A stretch of 14,962 nucleotides of DNA from a virus (lineage: Duplodnaviria; Heunggongvirae; Uroviricota; Caudoviricetes), in IMG/VR virus record IMGVR_UViG_2529293000_000008; one strand, written 5' to 3'. Positions 8,732-14,962 of the stretch are shown one piece after another. Numbering within the stretch: the first letter of the stretch is position 1; every line of letters starts with the position of its first letter. The notes under the pieces are model-generated. The model was not told the origin of the DNA. It worked only from the letters and a program-made list of their open reading frames with translations, and made no database searches. The translations under genes were made by a program, and so were the position numbers.

Positions 8732-8780
8732 TTTTATTTTTACCCCCTCGTTTAAAAAGTTTTGAGTTGTGCCTCCCCTT

Positions 8781-9006
8781 GTCTACCTTATCTACCTTAC
8801 TGGCTCTCATGCCAGTAATGGCGCGGCTTTCAGCGGGGTAGAGTGCTTTTATCCACTATCTACCCCGTATCTACCTCCCTGTCTGATTCAGGTAAAATCA
8901 GGTAGAGAGGGTAGATAGTAGGTAGACAGTGAAAAAAGGCTGTCTACCTAAGTTAATATACTGAATTAAATGTATTTTTCTTTACTCAGGTAGACAGGGT
9001 AGACAG
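8781..9006. repeat. Iteron array and AT-rich tract; putative origin of replication
   Basis: At least 11 copies of the heptamer GGTAGA(C/T/G) or its complement in both orientations: 8781-8787, 8790-8796, 8837-8843, 8858-8864, 8869-8875, 8901-8907, 8910-8916, 8921-8927, 8942-8948, and tandem GGTAGACAG at 8989-8997 and 8998-9006; AT-rich stretch 8950-8985; immediately 3' of the primase-helicase gene. Confidence 0.65.
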
Positions 9007-9019
9007 CCATTGCAAAAAA

Positions 9020-10774
9020 TTATAAAAACGCGTCGCAATCGTCTGTTGTTATTGCGTTAGTCTGCGTTACTCCCTTAACTTTCCGCGTAATATATTCATG
9101 TCCGTAAACTTTCGCGGCTGGCTTCATAGCCTTGCCAAAGTCATTTACGTTTAGCGGTTTGCTCCTGCCTGCGTACGCCATAAACGCCAGATAGACGCGG
9201 TAAAGGCTGTTTCTGGTCGTGTACTTCACTGAATCGCCACCGCCGCCCATCATCAGGCCGCGTGCTTCCTCCAGAAAATTCAGGAACTGGCAAAACTCAA
9301 TAACCGGATCCGTCTGTTGCTTTATTGCCAGTGCTTCATCACCGTCACGCTGTTCAATGAGTAAAGCCCGTGCCTTTTCAGGGTCGGCAAAGTTCGCCAG
9401 CAAGCGGCGGATAATCACAGGGATTTCAGCCGCGATCTTTTCCGGTAGCTCCCTGTCTTTTTCTGCCTCGCTTACGATGTTATCGAACCGGAATATCACC
9501 CGACGACGTGCCACACCTCCGGCCCGTTCGGTGAATATCATCGGATTGTTATTGGTTGCCAGCACCACCGCCCTGATTACCGCCGTAAAACGCTTTTCAT
9601 ATTTCGGGTTAATTTCCACGGGGTCGCCGCCCGTGATTTTCTTGATGCCCGTTCCTTCGCCTGTATATTTCGGCTGGTCTGCCAGGACGATAAGACGACT
9701 CCCGACAACCTGCGCACGCCCACCAGCATCATCAAGCGATGTCATTTCAGCGCTTACCGTGTTCTGTTTCCCTGCCAGAAGGCTGGCTATGTGTGTGAAT
9801 GTACTTTTACCGCTCCCGCCGTCTCCGGTGGCCTCAATAAACATCTGCCAGTCGTACCGGTTCGCCATAATCATGTACAGCGCGGCACATATACGCATCA
9901 TCTTGCGCGGGTCTTTTCCGGCTGCGTGCTCAAGCCATTTATGAAAGTTTGGCGCGTTATCGCGGATGTTCTCCCCTGGTGCTGGTGGCGTGTACTCAAT
10001 GCCGTTGTGCGTGGTGATCCAGTTCTCCGGCGTGTGCGGGGAAAATTCCCCCGTTTTCAGGTCAAGCGCACCATTGGCGAACGGCAGCAAATCGCCGGAC
10101 GGCTCGCCCATTGGTTCGGCAATAACTTTTAACGCTTCCACGGCGTTATTGATTACGCGCTTGCTGAAAGTGGCCCTGTGCTCTGAATAGATCGCCACCA
10201 TTTCGCGGCTAAGTTCCATTGTGCTGACCGGACACCATACCCCGCCGCGCCATACGTGAACGATTTCACTTTCAGGATGTACGCAAACGCCATCAAAGCG
10301 ATCGGCAAGCAGCTGCGCGCGCTCACTGTCCGCCATCTGCGAAAGTTGCGCCTTTTGCTTTACCGGAAGCTCAATGACCAGACCATCAGAAAGATTCTGG
10401 CGCTCACGGGCCAGATATTCGCGCCAGTTCTCCACCTTCTGACCGTGCATACCCTCAGGATAAAAATTTGCATCCTGTACGCCTGCCGCCGCCAGCTTCT
10501 GGCCAATCGCCTTTATCATTACTGGCGCAAGATATCCGGCCCTGAATATGCGCACGGATTTTCTGCCTTCCGGCACAATTTGCAGCTTATCCAGTTCTGA
10601 TAACTGCTGCTCCCCAAGCCACACAGGAGGCTCATTATCTCCGGCCATACGCGCATCATGTTCCTGCCATTGTTTCGCGTGTGCCCAGGCATCACTACCC
10701 GCAAAAATAATGACTTCTGTTCCTTTGTGTTTTATGCCGCGTGACTGCTGTTTTACGTTCGGTGCCAGTTTCAT
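9020..10774 (-). CDS. Replication initiator: P4/D5-type primase-helicase (Pri-Rep)
   Basis: 584 aa with Walker A GDGGSGKST and a Walker B-like RLIVLADQP segment in the C-terminal half, as in P4-alpha/D5-like helicases; ATGA coupling with the upstream ORF; AGGGGT Shine-Dalgarno. Confidence 0.85.
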   Translation of the reverse strand: MKLAPNVKQQSRGIKHKGTEVIIFAGSDAWAHAKQWQEHDARMAGDNEPPVWLGEQQLSELDKLQIVPEGRKSVRIFRAGYLAPVMIKAIGQKLAAAGVQDANFYPEGMHGQKVENWREYLARERQNLSDGLVIELPVKQKAQLSQMADSERAQLLADRFDGVCVHPESEIVHVWRGGVWCPVSTMELSREMVAIYSEHRATFSKRVINNAVEALKVIAEPMGEPSGDLLPFANGALDLKTGEFSPHTPENWITTHNGIEYTPPAPGENIRDNAPNFHKWLEHAAGKDPRKMMRICAALYMIMANRYDWQMFIEATGDGGSGKSTFTHIASLLAGKQNTVSAEMTSLDDAGGRAQVVGSRLIVLADQPKYTGEGTGIKKITGGDPVEINPKYEKRFTAVIRAVVLATNNNPMIFTERAGGVARRRVIFRFDNIVSEAEKDRELPEKIAAEIPVIIRRLLANFADPEKARALLIEQRDGDEALAIKQQTDPVIEFCQFLNFLEEARGLMMGGGGDSVKYTTRNSLYRVYLAFMAYAGRSKPLNVNDFGKAMKPAAKVYGHEYITRKVKGVTQTNAITTDDCDAFL

Positions 10775-11070
10775 TTTTTACCCCTGAATCCTTTAATCAT
10801 GGTTTTCATCTTCTGAATATTGGCGCGTGCTTTCTCCCTGCTGGTGGGCACGTTACGCGGTACGGCCTGCACAAGAGAAAAATCACGGTCGAACTGATAA
10901 ACAGGCATCACGCAATCATATTCGTAGCCTTCACGACGGTAGGTTACGCGCCGTTCCTCCACGCCCTTAATCATTACCGTGCCGCCGTACTTATCGCGGT
11001 AAATATCACCGCGCATGAATTTAGTGCGAGTTTTGCCACTGGCAGTTAAGCCAGAATATTTAAGTTTCAT
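10771..11070 (-). CDS. Hypothetical protein (99 aa), translationally coupled to the primase gene
   Basis: ATG at 11070 with GGAG Shine-Dalgarno; its stop overlaps the primase ATG; no recognisable motif. Confidence 0.5.
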   Translation of the reverse strand: MKLKYSGLTASGKTRTKFMRGDIYRDKYGGTVMIKGVEERRVTYRREGYEYDCVMPVYQFDRDFSLVQAVPRNVPTSREKARANIQKMKTMIKGFRGKK

Positions 11071-11075
11071 TATTT

Positions 11076-11309
11076 TTATTCTCCGGTGTGGGGCGCTTTA
11101 TACTGGTCGTGTAATGTCTCTATTTCCTGCAACTCATTTATTACAGGCTCAAGAAGCGTTATTAATGCCGTGACAATCCTTGATTTCTGTTTATCACGTT
11201 CATTATCTCCAAGCGTTTCAAGACATATGCGCAATATTTCCAACATATTTTCACTGTGAGAAAGTGCAAGAAATGCGCGGTCTATTGTTTCGTGGTAAAT
11301 ATCACGCAT
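11076..11309 (-). CDS. Hypothetical protein (77 aa)
   Basis: ATG at 11309 with GGGGA Shine-Dalgarno; same strand and operon; no recognisable motif. Confidence 0.5.
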   Translation of the reverse strand: MRDIYHETIDRAFLALSHSENMLEILRICLETLGDNERDKQKSRIVTALITLLEPVINELQEIETLHDQYKAPHTGE

Positions 11310-11378
11310 ATTAATCCCCGTCCGTCGTTTTTCTTAAAATAACCTCTGTCACGAAATCAGCATAATCGGCGGCGATAT

Positions 11379-11531
11379 TCAGTACATCAAGCCCCGTTGA
11401 TTTATATTCTCTCGTGGAAAGTAAGAAAAAGCCGCTCTAATAAGCTCTGGCATTGACGAAAGCGCATCAGCCGCATCATCAGGAACGCCGGAAAATTCCT
11501 GTTTCAGGGAATTAAAACGATCATCACGCAT
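11379..11531 (-). CDS. Hypothetical small protein (50 aa), not in the supplied ORF track
   Basis: Hand-translated from the minus strand: ATG at 11531 preceded by AGGGGGG, overlapping the upstream stop by 8 nt; MRDDRFNSLKQEFSGVPDDAADALSSMPELIRAAFSYFPRENINQRGLMY then TGA. Confidence 0.35.
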   Translation of the reverse strand: MRDDRFNSLKQEFSGVPDDAADALSSMPELIRAAFSYFPRENINQRGLMY

Positions 11532-11889
11532 GTTTACCCCCCTGAATGACCTGATAACCGCAACTGGTCAGCAACTCGATAAATTCCGGCAGTGTGCCGA
11601 AACAGCAATCATCACGCAGCCGTTCGCAGGATACCTCGACGCCGTTTTCGTAGTGACTCACCATACATCCGGTAAAATGCAGATCATCATCGTGATGGCT
11701 CGTTGACGGCTTAATCAGTCGCGCACGTTCCGCCAGTTCCAGCAATGCTTCAACGCTTCCGGCAATTGCACCATCCGGCAGGTGATAATTACGCACTATG
11801 CGCCCGTTCTCCACATTGACCAGCAACTGCCCGGTAAATTTCTCGTCAAACTGAATGCTGTTAAGGTCAGAAATTGACAGGTTATGCAT
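11524..11889 (-). CDS. Hypothetical protein (121 aa)
   Basis: Start chosen at ATG 11889 (MHNLSISDL...) with AGGAGG Shine-Dalgarno, overlapping the upstream ORF by 8 nt; no recognisable motif. Confidence 0.55.
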   Translation of the reverse strand: MHNLSISDLNSIQFDEKFTGQLLVNVENGRIVRNYHLPDGAIAGSVEALLELAERARLIKPSTSHHDDDLHFTGCMVSHYENGVEVSCERLRDDCCFGTLPEFIELLTSCGYQVIQGGKHA

Positions 11890-12106
11890 GGTGCACCTCC
11901 TGCACATCAGCCATGATAATTTTTCCGGCCTTATCCAGTGCCTGATCGGCTTTTAGCTGCACAAATGCTAAATAATGGAAGATGCATTCTGATTCTCTGG
12001 CTGCGTGTTTATGCGCCCTGTCAGCAATAACAGAAATATCAATAAGCGCGTGCATCAGCGTAGTGAGCGCGGCGGCTGCTGCGTCCGGTGTGGTTTTATT
12101 GCACAT
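11882..12106 (-). CDS. Hypothetical protein (74 aa)
   Basis: ATG at 12106 with AGGGGG Shine-Dalgarno; overlaps the upstream ORF stop. Confidence 0.5.
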   Translation of the reverse strand: MCNKTTPDAAAAALTTLMHALIDISVIADRAHKHAARESECIFHYLAFVQLKADQALDKAGKIIMADVQEVHHA

Positions 12107-12302
12107 GGCCTACCCCCTGGCGAATACGGGCAGCGAATACCATCACGCAGCCATCAGGAGATTGCTGACGCGCTTCCTGTTCGCTGGTGGCCTCGATGGT
12201 AATCACGCGCGGTTGTGCCGTGCTCAGGGCGATAAAACGCCAGATGTATTTATTCAGGTCGTGCGAATCCCGCCCTTGCGGGTGTGTGGTATGATTTCTC
12301 AT
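12096..12302 (-). CDS. Hypothetical protein (68 aa), first gene of the small-ORF operon
   Basis: 3' portion of the long 12096..13124 track ORF; internal ATG at 12302 with GAGG Shine-Dalgarno; the upstream part of the track ORF crosses the promoter/operator region and is judged spurious. Confidence 0.45.
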   Translation of the reverse strand: MRNHTTHPQGRDSHDLNKYIWRFIALSTAQPRVITIEATSEQEARQQSPDGCVMVFAARIRQGVGHVQ

Positions 12303-12399
12303 AGCTACCTCGATACTTTCGCTATCGTTGGTGGTTAGAAGCCCCGTTACTGCTCCTACAGTGCGGGGTTTCGTCGTTTCTGTGCCTTTCATCAACAAG

Positions 12400-12480
12400 G
12401 TGTAAGACACAATGTAAAACAATGGTGTCTTACACGTCAACCCTTCAAAATATTTTTTTTTCGTGTATATTGTCTTACAC
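12400..12480. promoter_or_regulatory. Divergent promoter region with three operator-like GTGT-N3-ACAC sites
   Basis: GTGTAAGACAC at 12400-12410, its reverse complement GTGTCTTACAC at 12425-12435, and tTGTCTTACAC at 12470-12480; a T-run and TATATT lie between sites 2 and 3; sits between minus-strand and plus-strand operons. Confidence 0.55.
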
Positions 12481-12501
12481 CAAAAACATGAGGGGTTAAA
12501 C

Positions 12502-12681
12502 ATGGCAACGGGTCCAAAGAATGCAAAATCACAATCTGTAACTGCACGTATTGCCCATGAAATTATTGAAGGCATGGAGAACGTGAAAGAAGAAGGCGAA
12601 AGCACGGGACAGTTTATAAACGCAGCCATGCGCGGCGAAATCAAACGCCGCCAGCGCCGCAAGGCCAAAGAACCAGAGTAA
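12502..12681 (+). CDS. Small DNA-binding protein, likely ribbon-helix-helix (CopG/Arc/MetJ-like) regulator
   Basis: 59 aa; ATG at 12502 with GAGGGG Shine-Dalgarno 6 nt upstream; SVTARIAHEIIEGMENVKEEGESTGQFINAAMRGEI fits a beta-strand, helix, G-x-S/T turn, helix RHH layout; basic C-terminal tail; opposite strand to the rest of the island. Confidence 0.5.
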   Translation: MATGPKNAKSQSVTARIAHEIIEGMENVKEEGESTGQFINAAMRGEIKRRQRRKAKEPE

Positions 12682-12738
12682 TCACCATCAGCGCCGTGGT
12701 GTAAGGTATTACGGCGCATTGCTATGCAGGACAACACA

Positions 12739-12912
12739 ATGACCGATAAAGAATTGACCAAAACATTATCACCGGCACGGAAAAGACGGCGCAGAAAGAT
12801 AGAACATGAATCAGAAAGATTCGCGCCATGTGCTTTTGCCCTTGAGCAATTCCTTAAAGAGTACAGGGAAAAGCGCTCATTGCAGGTATGGCAACGAACT
12901 GAACCAGACTGA
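12739..12912 (+). CDS. Hypothetical small basic protein (57 aa), second gene of the plus-strand operon
   Basis: ATG at 12739 with weak AGGA Shine-Dalgarno; contains a KRRRRK stretch; followed by an intrinsic terminator. Confidence 0.35.
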   Translation: MTDKELTKTLSPARKRRRRKIEHESERFAPCAFALEQFLKEYREKRSLQVWQRTEPD

Positions 12913-13009
12913 TTGCATTGCCCACCAGCCTGATAGCGGCTATCATCCCCGTGCTTATGTTTGGGATCACACACACAAACGGCGCAGCGGGTTATCTGTT
13001 CAGAAAGGC

Positions 13010-13037
13010 GGCTCCATTTCGGGGCCGCTTTTTTTAT
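13010..13037 (+). terminator. Rho-independent terminator of the plus-strand regulatory operon
   Basis: gcggctcc-atttc-ggggccgc hairpin (8 bp stem with one G-U pair) followed by TTTTTTT. Confidence 0.6.
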
Positions 13038-13181
13038 GCCTGAAAAACCCCAATTTTGTGGTTTTCCAGTCTCACCAGGGCGAACGAATCCCCGCCCACG
13101 TTCTGGCGTATATTCAATCTTCATGGTTATAGCTCTGTGTTCAGATGATTGATGTGTGGCGGCTGTGTGCCGCCAGCGTGA

Positions 13182-13370
13182 TTAATGAACTGCCTTGCAG
13201 CTATCCTTCCAGGCCAGAACCTCGGATAAAGACCAGCCAACGGAACGACCGCCAAGTTTACGACGTGATGGGAATTGTCCGGCCTTTTCCAGGCGGTAGC
13301 GGCATGAGCGGCTAAGGCCTGTTAGCTTTTCGCATTCTTTTTCACGTATAAACCGATCAGTGCTTAACAC
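13182..13370 (-). CDS. alpA: AlpA-family transcriptional regulator / excisionase-like protein
   Basis: 62 aa; LTGLSRSCRYRLEKAGQFPSRRKLGGRSVGWSLSEVLAW matches the AlpA-family HTH pattern; GTG start at 13370 with AAGGGGG Shine-Dalgarno. Confidence 0.85.
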   Translation of the reverse strand: MLSTDRFIREKECEKLTGLSRSCRYRLEKAGQFPSRRKLGGRSVGWSLSEVLAWKDSCKAVH

Positions 13371-13744: not shown

Positions 13745-14962
13745 TTATTTTCTTCTGGCTACTGGTAGCGTGGTTACGTTTTCATGTGTTCCCGCCAGTA
13801 TCCCTAACCGCTCCGTCCACATATCCAGCGCATTGCGTTTAGCATCCAGATAACGGGAATGATTATAAACTCGCTGCATTCCTGGCATCTGATGACCTGT
13901 AAGCTGCTCCACGACATGCGGATCAACGCCTAAATCGTTCAGCATGGTTGTAAAGGTGCGCCGGATGTCATGCAGTGACCAGTGAGGATGATTAAGCCTC
14001 CTGTGCGCTAATCTTCCATACTGCGATACGCTGGCCTCCTGTTTCGCTTCCCCCAGCAATAAGCCCGTGTGCCTGTTCTGCTCCACCAGCTGCGTGACGA
14101 ACGGCAGGATCGCTTCCGGTATGGGCCGGAATATTGCGACCTTCGTTTTGCTGTGCTCCTTCGGAACGGTCCATAGCATTTCCGTAAAATCCCACTCCCC
14201 GATCTCCGATAGCCTCAGTTCTACCGTCCTGGCTCCGAAGACAATCAGGAGGCGGATTAACGCGACGTAGTAAGGGGAAAATATTTTTTTGTCCAGTGCC
14301 TGCAATAATTCGCCAAGTTCTTTGTTACTTAAGACACGTTCGCTTATATCCGGTTTTTTCCCAACGTCCGCCACGTTCAGATCGTCCAGAACGTTGCTGA
14401 TTGCATAGCGCCGCCTACGGCAGAACTTAAGCGCCTGTTTGCACGCCTGTAGCACGAATCCGGCAGTAACAGGCGTTCGCTTTGCCACCTGGTCAAAACA
14501 GGCCAGCCAGTGCCGTAGCTCGCATTTATCCAGCGGCATAGCACCAATCTGCTGTATTACGTGATTATTAAGTCGCCTTTTCAGGGCGATATAATCCACG
14601 CGGTTTTCCTTTACGTAATACTCAAGCCAGTAGGTGAGCGCATCGCCAACCGTTACGGGCTTTAACGCTTCCTGTACGGTGTAATTCATCTCATGACGTG
14701 GATTTTTCCCCTCAGCCAGCCATGTGCGACACTGTGCGGCTTTTTCCCTGGCTGCTTTCAGGCTCAGATCAGGATAACTTCCCAGCTTAATGCGTTCGGG
14801 TCGTGTCTCCCTTCCCGTTCCGGCCCTGTATGTGAAATACCAGGTCAATTTCCCTGATGTTAAATATTTCACGCTCAGGTTTCCGCCATCACTATAAAAC
14901 GTGTTTTTCTCCGCTGGCTTACCATGAAGTTTCCTTAGCAAGGTATCGCTCAGTTTGTTCAT
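13745..14962 (-). CDS. int: Tyrosine recombinase / integrase (P4-like)
   Basis: 405 aa; N-terminal arm-binding-like region (LTSGKLTWYFTYRAG...LGSYPDLSLKAAREKA) and C-terminal catalytic region with HDIRRT and RVYNHSRY (His/Arg/Tyr signature); start codon lies at the window edge. Confidence 0.92.
   Translation of the reverse strand: MNKLSDTLLRKLHGKPAEKNTFYSDGGNLSVKYLTSGKLTWYFTYRAGTGRETRPERIKLGSYPDLSLKAAREKAAQCRTWLAEGKNPRHEMNYTVQEALKPVTVGDALTYWLEYYVKENRVDYIALKRRLNNHVIQQIGAMPLDKCELRHWLACFDQVAKRTPVTAGFVLQACKQALKFCRRRRYAISNVLDDLNVADVGKKPDISERVLSNKELGELLQALDKKIFSPYYVALIRLLIVFGARTVELRLSEIGEWDFTEMLWTVPKEHSKTKVAIFRPIPEAILPFVTQLVEQNRHTGLLLGEAKQEASVSQYGRLAHRRLNHPHWSLHDIRRTFTTMLNDLGVDPHVVEQLTGHQMPGMQRVYNHSRYLDAKRNALDMWTERLGILAGTHENVTTLPVARRK

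Follow-up and report, generated by a model that had tools for sequence, protein, structure and literature searches.

An Icd-like gene, an RgdR ortholog and a shuffled set of small genes in the probable early operon of an Escherichia coli capsid-forming satellite

In this work we analyzed a block of six small open reading frames (ORFs) at positions 10771-12302 of a 14,962-nucleotide (nt) stretch of DNA, IMG/VR record IMGVR_UViG_2529293000_000008 (hereafter the window). We consider it probable that this block forms the promoter-proximal end of the early (replication) operon in a capsid-forming phage-inducible chromosomal island (cf-PICI) of Escherichia coli, in which a likely inhibitor of cell division, homologous to the Icd protein of phage P1, is encoded first and an ortholog of the regulator RgdR is encoded last, directly ahead of the primase-helicase gene.

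A preliminary description, made from the letters alone, had regarded all six ORFs as being of unknown function and, from their position in a satellite, as the best candidates for early genes that interfere with a helper phage or counter host defences. The first statement stands for three or four of the ORFs and does not for ORF1 (Icd-like) and ORF6 (RgdR). Overall, the block is mostly ordinary, consisting of two known and partly characterised families, one pseudogene (ORF4) and three orphans (ORF2, ORF3 and ORF5).

Results

The six ORFs form one tightly coupled operon of real genes

All coding within the block lies on the minus strand, where the six ORFs of 50-121 amino acids (aa) occupy the positions previously reported for them (Table 1) and run into the primase gene. 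As had been proposed, they form one tightly coupled operon between the divergent-promoter switch and that gene. Each ORF is preceded by a purine-rich, Shine-Dalgarno (SD)-like site (GAGGT, GGGGGT, AGGAGGT, GGGGGGT, GGGGA and GGAGA, from ORF1 to ORF6), which is placed 5-7 nt before the ATG in ORF1-5 and ~11 nt before it in ORF6. The successive junctions, from ORF1 through the primase gene, measure -11, -8, -8, +69, +5 and -4 nt, the last being an ATGA, in agreement with the mostly overlapping stop and start codons noted earlier. No terminator-like site was found on the coding strand within the block.

For comparison, small proteins were clustered from 14 E. coli loci (individual loci are referred to by L numbers). 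The 14 loci share a common frame, namely an Icd-like gene, one to five small genes, rgdR and a replication gene, and both the SD sites and the geometry of the overlaps are kept across them. All six ORFs of the window match PHROG families (E 1e-18 to 1e-45), and five of the six are annotated as coding sequences in RefSeq. In addition, pairwise Nei-Gojobori comparison with orthologs from other islands gave ratios of nonsynonymous to synonymous substitution (dN/dS) of 0.10-0.50 in nearly all comparisons for the six families (ORF1, 0.10-0.33; ORF2, 0.23-0.45; intact ORF4, 0.23-0.69; ORF5, 0.14-0.50), the value of 0.69 coming from one close ORF4 pair, which is indicative of purifying selection. On the strength of the PHROG matches, the RefSeq calls and the dN/dS values, the ORFs are real genes, five of them intact and one a pseudogene.

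That some of them might instead be chance frames in a regulatory or leader region is hardly credible. ORF4 as drawn is indeed a truncated frame, a mechanically called 342-aa ORF crosses the switch by chance, and long Icd-like calls of the Prokaryotic Genome Annotation Pipeline (PGAP) reach into the non-coding leader; however, the dN/dS values of 0.1-0.5 nearly throughout, the strength of the PHROG matches, the SD sites and overlaps kept in 14 loci and the demonstrated function of RgdR (PMC3378721) all speak against such an origin.

ORF1 is a probable FtsZ-directed homolog of phage P1 Icd

The preliminary description had recognised no motif in any of the six ORFs, a statement which fails for the two outermost ones. 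ORF1 matches the Icd-like model NF033153 (E 9.7e-20, 70.4 bits, cut-off 25), and ORF6 matches PF13973 with 85 bits (see below). In a direct comparison with P1 icd, taken from NC_005856 (48470-48691), residues 18-60 of ORF1 aligned with residues 11-50 of P1 Icd at 37% identity (BLASTP E 2e-7); P1 was not recovered at E 1e-3 when all phage records were searched with tblastn. The NF033153 model spans residues 12-51 of P1 Icd, and a 2025 study delimited precisely these residues as the smallest part of the protein able to block Z-rings and to bind FtsZ (PMC11897509). The conserved domain therefore coincides with the experimentally defined active core. These results suggest that ORF1 is a probable FtsZ-directed division inhibitor, that is, an Icd homolog which keeps the FtsZ-binding core.

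The genetic context of ORF1 is also akin to that of Icd in the P1 immI operon (c4-icd-ant). Apart from the shared NF033153 domain, each gene is the first small cistron behind a regulatory leader, and its stop codon overlaps the next gene. The P1 annotation gives a 4-nt overlap between icd and ant1 and describes icd as 'apparently required for expression of ant'; in our comparison, the stop codon of the Icd-like gene overlaps the next start by 8-11 nt in 14/14 loci. The two systems differ in the genes located 3' of icd, which specify the Ant antirepressor in P1, whereas small ORFs and the primase gene follow here. A C4-type antisense RNA, as present in P1, was not found, no C4/CI-family immunity RNA being matched anywhere in the window by Rfam at E <= 1; other Rfam families were likewise not credibly represented.

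Longer readings of ORF1 (134 or 342 aa) were rejected. In the ORF1 frame, the ratio of nonsynonymous to synonymous polymorphism (pN/pS) of the leader is ~1 (0.9-1.4 between lineages), and the leader of L016 contains five stop codons in this frame. The 134-aa 'long' Icd-like calls of PGAP are therefore probably over-extended, and the upstream limit of the block at 12302 was borne out by the leader values. The mechanical 342-aa frame extends from a gene remnant through the switch into ORF1, antisense to the YlcI/YnfO gene, and its middle part is free of coding constraint; the remnant itself is a PGAP pseudogene whose relatives are BRO-N or long Icd-like proteins.

The Icd-like domain (~48 residues) was also encountered as the C-terminal tail of larger proteins, namely an Ash-domain protein and proteins of 154 aa and 324 aa. 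Two such proteins are encoded in tandem in L012 (4185-4691 and 3728-4192), the locus that holds the Ash-domain protein, and the 324-aa protein is that of vB_KppS-Ant (L017, 8182-9156).

ORF6 is an RgdR ortholog tied to the replication gene

ORF6 matches DUF4222, a domain of unknown function (PF13973; E 2.5e-24, 85 bits against a cut-off of 27, residues 17-68). It is a 99-aa protein with an isoelectric point (pI) of 10.2, contains R20-G21-D22 and is 86% identical to a protein of O157 F7508 carrying all six diagnostic residues of ECs1581. By these sequence features, ORF6 is an ortholog of RgdR (ECs1581), a protein of 99 aa and pI ~10 with an RGD motif at residues 20-22, encoded in O-island 51 (OI-51)/CP-933C (Flockhart et al. 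2012, PMC3378721). RgdR activates LEE1 of the enterocyte effacement locus (LEE) and type III secretion (T3S), represses motility and binds DNA non-specifically, the LEE1/T3S and motility effects having been demonstrated for ECs1581, C1493 and engineered ED1a variants (PMC3378721).

OI-51 corresponds to the cf-PICI EcCIEDL933, and there as here a basic DUF4222 protein with an RGD motif is encoded immediately upstream of, and overlapping, the PICI replication gene. The ED1a island, which carries the ortholog ECED1_1787, occupies the same ydgD-tqsA (ydgG) site as the window (PMC3378721). ORF6 differs from RgdR by 14 substitutions, mostly in the C-terminal helix, and from the inactive ED1a variant in that it keeps R20 and K35. 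The RGD motif is not universal within the family, being replaced by NGD, PGD or IGD in L010, L015, L009 and L011. Homology to characterised phage proteins, which the preliminary description had named as evidence against new functions, was thus found for ORF1 and ORF6, since these are homologous to P1 Icd and RgdR, respectively.

Among the structure predictions proposed earlier, the AlphaFold2 (AF2) model of ORF6 was well resolved in its core, with a predicted local distance difference test (pLDDT) of ~90, and shows a five-strand SH3/Tudor-like barrel followed by a C-terminal helix. A distinctly tentative reading is that RgdR might be a small Tudor domain of the CarD/UvrD type, docking on RNA polymerase.

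In 14/14 loci, the stop codon of rgdR and the start codon of the replication gene share an overlap of 4 nt (ATGA), be the replication protein a P4-type primase, a RepA helicase or a DUF927 protein. This feature bears on the proposal that RgdR, perhaps with its neighbours, is lysogenic-conversion cargo benefiting the carrier strain by raising LEE/T3S expression, lowering motility and increasing Congo red binding. T3S is reduced upon deletion of ecs1581 and recovers upon complementation, activity was also seen for the CFT073 ortholog, and the single exchange C20R turns the inactive ED1a protein into an active one (PMC3378721); moreover, ORF6 carries R20 and K35, as active forms do, and a PerC-family gene lies downstream. 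Nevertheless, RgdR orthologs are present in uropathogenic, neonatal meningitis-associated and commensal E. coli strains devoid of LEE and the DNA binding of RgdR is non-specific (PMC3378721), rgdR occurs in all PICIs analysed and always with the 4-nt overlap to a replication gene of any type, it lies inside an induction-controlled operon, and the host of the window is a human blood isolate. We therefore regard the cargo explanation as quite improbable.

ORF2, ORF3 and ORF5 belong to a recombining cassette

Within the common frame, icd and rgdR are invariant, and the small genes between them are shuffled. These fall into family A (ORF2 and ORF4), family E (ORF3) and family D (ORF5), plus families F and G, which are absent from the window; family F is present in L003, whose island is 97% identical to the window. 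Comparison of the window with L004 revealed an identical ORF3 (dS = 0) amid neighbouring genes with dS values of 0.17-0.44, so that recombination within the block is evident.

ORF2 (phrog_5146, E 1e-44) has 173 homolog clusters, in which all source names listed are E. coli. In O157-type islands, ORF2-like and ORF4-like sequences are joined in one protein of 154 aa (L007 3532-3996, L008 3532-3996), of which ORF2 constitutes the N-terminal half; in L016 the two genes are separate and overlapping. Because of this fusion, we read ORF2 and ORF4 as two halves of what would be one functional unit, half-lost in the window. The same 154-aa protein accounts for the matches of ORF2 and ORF4 to phrog_2512, a family matched by ORF2, ORF3 and ORF4 alike.

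ORF3 consists of a ~45-aa module, marked by the motif FTG-x6-ENG, that has been duplicated in tandem, as indicated by comparison of its two halves (BLASTP E 1e-5; hhalign E 6e-5; Smith-Waterman z = 7.4, with 0/2000 shuffles reaching the score). Homologs of 66-70 aa with a single module are encoded in L007, L016 and L009, and variants of 83-91 aa with a collapsed repeat were found in the protein database. The AF2 model of ORF3, built from 32 homologs, is poor (pLDDT 48) and displays a beta-beta-alpha pattern twice; at so low a value the model was unfit for a fold search, and the beta-beta-alpha repeat alone was used.

ORF5 (phrog_2196, E 8.6e-37) lies directly upstream of rgdR in 12/14 islands and has only 8 relatives and no fusions in an exhaustive search of 1.84 billion cluster representatives. 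Acidic isoelectric points were obtained for ORF3, intact ORF4 and ORF5 (pI 4.4-5.1) and a mildly acidic one for ORF2 (pI 6.3).

The remote homology searches that assigned ORF1 and ORF6 to families gave nothing for the genes between them: neither ORF2-5 nor cassette families F and G have matches in Pfam, NCBIfam or PADLOC, and no PADLOC defence family was matched at E <= 1 by any of the six ORFs. Searches of solved structures in the PDB returned only noise (designed armadillo repeats, KIF23) for ORF1, ORF3, ORF5, intact ORF4 and ORF6, and noise only for the ORF2-family and RgdR-family profiles. Mutual paralogy of the cassette genes was rejected, all between-family BLASTP and hhalign comparisons being negative. 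ORF2, ORF3 and ORF5 are thus genuine orphans, real but uncharacterised.

These observations also bear on the earlier suggestion that the small ORFs are early satellite weapons directed against the helper phage or host defence. ORF2-5 are small, acidic (pI 4.4-6.3) and taxonomically narrow, and they are shuffled between islands like accessory genes. Against this, they show no similarity to PADLOC, Pfam or PDB entries; EcCIEDL933, the prototype cf-PICI, whose island type (OI-51) has this Icd...RgdR frame in the O157 loci analysed, does not reduce helper titres; the known interference of E. coli PICIs proceeds via Rpp and packaging and is encoded elsewhere; and ORF4 has been lost without visible compensation. 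In addition, both end genes of the block, icd and rgdR, are invariant frame genes and not variable cargo. We consider a weapon role rather unlikely for the block; for ORF2, ORF3 and ORF5, helper interference or anti-defence activity is possible, with nothing found in its support.

ORF4 is a frameshifted remnant

The preliminary description had found ORF4 (11379-11531) by hand translation. The frame exists; it is not an intact gene but the frameshifted remnant of a gene of 73-77 aa. In alignment with the intact alleles of L002 and L004, which encode acidic proteins of that length, the window lacks 1 nt of a T6 run (A5 on the plus strand, 11426-11430), and this deletion shortens the product to 50 aa. 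The lost frame ends at a TAA located 1 nt before the start of ORF5, and in intact relatives it ends 1 nt before or overlaps this start, which explains the 69-nt gap between ORF4 and ORF5. In line with this, PGAP flags the region as 'frameshifted'.

With identical flanks, the T5 allele is present in 4 genomes and the T6 allele in 51; the T5 allele may be an assembly error. The same truncated tail was found again in other contexts. In Shigella flexneri (L005 5540-5757), a gene of the ORF4 family is frameshifted at a position other than that in the window; the family was therefore inactivated independently. The recurrent truncated tail and the separate Shigella frameshift indicate, at the level of sequence, that the ORF4 family is dispensable and prone to slippage.

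A candidate promoter and operator precede a conserved leader

In a consensus scan, a sigma-70-like promoter candidate was found upstream of the block, whose -35 hexamer, TTGAC(G/A), is present in 8/8 aligned island lineages (Table 1). It is overlapped by a palindrome formed by the half-sites GTGTAAGACA and TGTCTTACAC, and a third half-site lies across the promoter of the YlcI/YnfO gene, which faces the opposite way. In an alignment of 8 loci, the three copies of the half-site alter together between lineages, reading GTGTAAGACA, GTGTTTAACA or GTGGCTGACA. Because all three change together, this pattern suggests that repressor/operator specificity has been swapped between lineages, possibly involving the YlcI/YnfO-family protein. 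The three half-sites, the conserved -35 hexamer and the leader are consistent with a repressor-controlled switch.

The leader is conserved and non-coding and contains two predicted hairpins. In three lineages of the alignment, a C:G pair of the first hairpin (12368-12342) has become G:C, a compensatory change; the second (12327-12311) abuts the SD site. The fold stability of these hairpins was not significant (z = -1.6), and the leader hairpins had no Rfam match.

Downstream of the YlcI/YnfO gene lies a 62-aa ORF matching phrog_21027 (E 1.6e-15), the counterpart of which is annotated by RefSeq in L004, L009, L011 and L016; in a RefSeq genome identical to the window, a minus-strand pseudogene is called at its place.

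By gene content, the element is a cf-PICI integrated in tqsA

Three complete E. coli chromosomes in RefSeq contain the window at 100% identity, among them that of MS20645, in which the island splits tqsA and leaves one half of the gene on either side. The host of the island-carrying genome is a human blood isolate. In MS20645, the gene order is integrase, AlpA-family regulator, gene remnant, divergent YlcI/YnfO gene, the six ORFs and primase, followed by a small ORF, single-stranded DNA-binding protein (SSB), PerC, major capsid protein, protease, portal, head closure, connector, HNH, TerS and TerL. The tyrosine integrase gene (int) lies at one end of the island, and the adjacent AlpA-family protein matches PF05930 (E 5e-18, 65 bits, cut-off 21). 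According to the RefSeq annotation of the identical locus, on which this statement relies, the island has its own capsid and packaging module and lacks tail and lysis genes. Judging from this gene content and order (int, AlpA, primase, capsid and terminase, without tail or lysis genes), the element has the cf-PICI architecture as defined for EcCIEDL933 and is therefore a cf-PICI of E. coli integrated in tqsA; the earlier notion that it is a satellite was correct.

Relatives of the block are carried by 1751-1931 of 5426 complete E. coli genomes (~1/3) and occur also in Shigella flexneri and E. albertii; with ORF6 as query, the genome contigs yielded two loci only. In the phage collection, no relative was found in a true phage, the sole match being vB_KppS-Ant, a cf-PICI. 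The latter (L017 = LR881103.1, 'Escherichia phage vB_KppS-Ant', 16.5 kb) was deposited as an induced phage. Its content is cf-PICI-like (integrase, regulator, Icd-like protein, primase, capsid, portal, connectors and terminase), and one of its genes carries the annotation 'tail length tape measure protein'.

With EcCICFT073 and EcCIEDL933 (Fillol-Salom 2018, Alqurainy 2022) the island shares the order int, alpA, small ORFs, rgdR, pri/rep and packaging genes. Its lineage differs in that a divergent YlcI/YnfO gene, equipped with an operator set of its own, is inserted between alpA and the operon, and in having the truncated remnant of an upstream gene. In the literature on the early regions of E. 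coli PICIs and cf-PICIs, we found no individual analyses of these small ORFs.

Table 1. Positions of the block, its candidate control elements and neighbouring features in the window.
Feature	Position	Strand	Description
ORF1	12096-12302	-	68 aa, Icd-like, first cistron; stop overlaps ORF2 start by 11 nt
ORF2	11882-12106	-	74 aa, His-rich
ORF3	11524-11889	-	121 aa, acidic; from ATG with AGGAGG site
ORF4 as drawn	11379-11531	-	50 aa; pseudogene extent 11311-11531
ORF5	11076-11309	-	77 aa, acidic, orphan family
ORF6	10771-11070	-	99 aa, pI 10.2, RgdR ortholog by sequence (DUF4222); stop overlaps primase start
Primase-helicase gene	9020-10774	-	D5_N, DUF5906, P4-family primase C-terminal domain; next cistron of the operon
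Promoter-like site	12411-12440	-	-35 TTGACG 12440-12435, 18-nt spacer, -10 TACATT 12416-12411; consensus scan
Operator-like repeats	12399-12481	.	palindrome GTGTAAGACA...TGTCTTACAC (12399-12435) overlapping the operon promoter; third half-site 12471-12481
Leader	12303-12404	-	conserved, non-coding, ~100 nt; hairpins 12368-12342 and 12327-12311
Iteron field	8777-9011	.	at least 10 GTCTACC / GGTAGAC copies in both orientations
YlcI/YnfO-family gene	12502-12681	+	divergent from the operon
62-aa ORF	12724-12912	+	phrog_21027
Mechanical 342-aa frame	12096-13124	-	rejected as a long reading of ORF1
Gene remnant	12609-13124		PGAP pseudogene
AlpA-family protein	13182-13370		PF05930, next to int
int	13745-14962		tyrosine integrase

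The iteron field adjoins the stop codon of the primase gene on its downstream side and includes a 39-nt imperfect palindrome (8837-8875 / 8910-8948); it is probably the replication origin of the island. A miRNA-like Rfam match at this palindrome was discarded as spurious, being produced by the palindrome itself.

Discussion

We propose that transcription of the operon would start at the sigma-70-like promoter (12440-12411), guarded by the operator with its three half-sites, and would run leftward through the leader and the six small cistrons, which are coupled in translation, and on through the genes for the primase-helicase and the SSB. Upon induction, ORF1 would most likely stop Z-ring formation and cell division, and it may also open the translation of the downstream cistrons, as in P1 icd-ant. 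RgdR would act at or with the replication or transcription machinery, and we infer that its LEE and motility effects are side effects. ORF2-5, as acidic and lineage-restricted proteins drawn from a recombining cassette pool, would most likely modulate or target the arrest-replication programme, since the two corresponding cassette genes of a seemingly allelic operon in strain ECOR61 were hit in screens for suppressors of its phage-triggered growth arrest.

In ECOR61, expression of the phage accessory gene orf24 kills the cell, and Tn5 suppressors of this death fall in an Icd-like gene and two adjacent small genes, with coordinates 8940-9132, 9131-9317 and 9309-9675; the effect was rebuilt only with all six linked genes including the primase gene, and it disappeared once the Icd-like gene was taken out (Silas et al. 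2023 preprint, 10.1101/2023.04.06.535777). From these coordinates, we derived genes of 63 and 61 codons with overlaps of 1 nt and 8 nt. The same sizes and overlaps are shown by families F and G, which in the island of O157 F7508 stand behind icd and are followed by family D, rgdR and the replication gene. Because gene sizes and overlaps, rather than sequences, match this Icd-G-F layout, the ECOR61 system is probably an allele of the operon of the window. This cell-death/superinfection-exclusion locus resembles the block in having an Icd-like gene first, overlapping small ORFs and a linked primase gene, and its layout matches the Icd-G-F-D-RgdR-replication gene order of L013 and L015, which share the frame of the window; it differs in that the cassette of the window is A-E-A-D instead of G-F-D. 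Overexpression of AlpA alone leads to runaway PICI replication and impairs growth and viability.

A more distant parallel is the left operon of satellite P4 (PLE, kil, eta, CI RNA, alpha primase), in which small early genes likewise end in a P4-family primase, both elements being integrase-bearing satellites. However, the window has no sequence match to P4, or to any true phage, in the phage collection searched, no CI/C4 RNA was matched in it by Rfam, and the packaging strategies are unlike.

Several points weigh against the mechanism outlined above, which for this allele is predicted from sequence and analogy. The identity of ORF1 to P1 Icd is only 37% across 43 residues, and only 4/6 of the in-core contacts predicted by AlphaFold3 in PMC11897509 (R15, E32, A48, R49) are conserved in ORF1. 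Promoter-like sites in the region are no more numerous than expected by chance. The correspondence with ECOR61 was drawn from sizes and overlaps only, and cassette genes G and F are missing from the window. Both this lineage and Shigella can dispense with ORF4, so that at least part of the cassette is not essential. Finally, the phenotypes of rgdR deletion in uninduced O157 imply some expression outside induction and would also fit a role as host regulator.

A further, distinctly tentative idea is that the cassette (ORF2/ORF4, ORF3, ORF5 and the G/F alternatives) forms a swappable specificity layer, coupling the Icd-plus-replication core to differing phage triggers or targets. The operon would then be a modular sensor-effector that chooses the phages upon which arrest and replication, or abortion, follow.

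Taken together, these results will not surprise a specialist on satellites, but they correct three recurrent errors of annotation, in which stumps of ORF4 are taken for genes, 'long Icd-like' calls are over-extended and RgdR is listed as a bare domain of unknown function. Of a block carried by about one third of complete E. coli genomes, the last gene alone had been studied, and this for virulence regulation, the published RgdR study leaving the biology of the satellite itself aside. Since the Icd core is kept, the frame of Icd and RgdR is fixed and the cassette genes are under selection, the block offers experimental leads on how a PICI takes over the cell. The results thereby bear on this takeover, and on how a similar operon kills the cell once a phage accessory gene appears.

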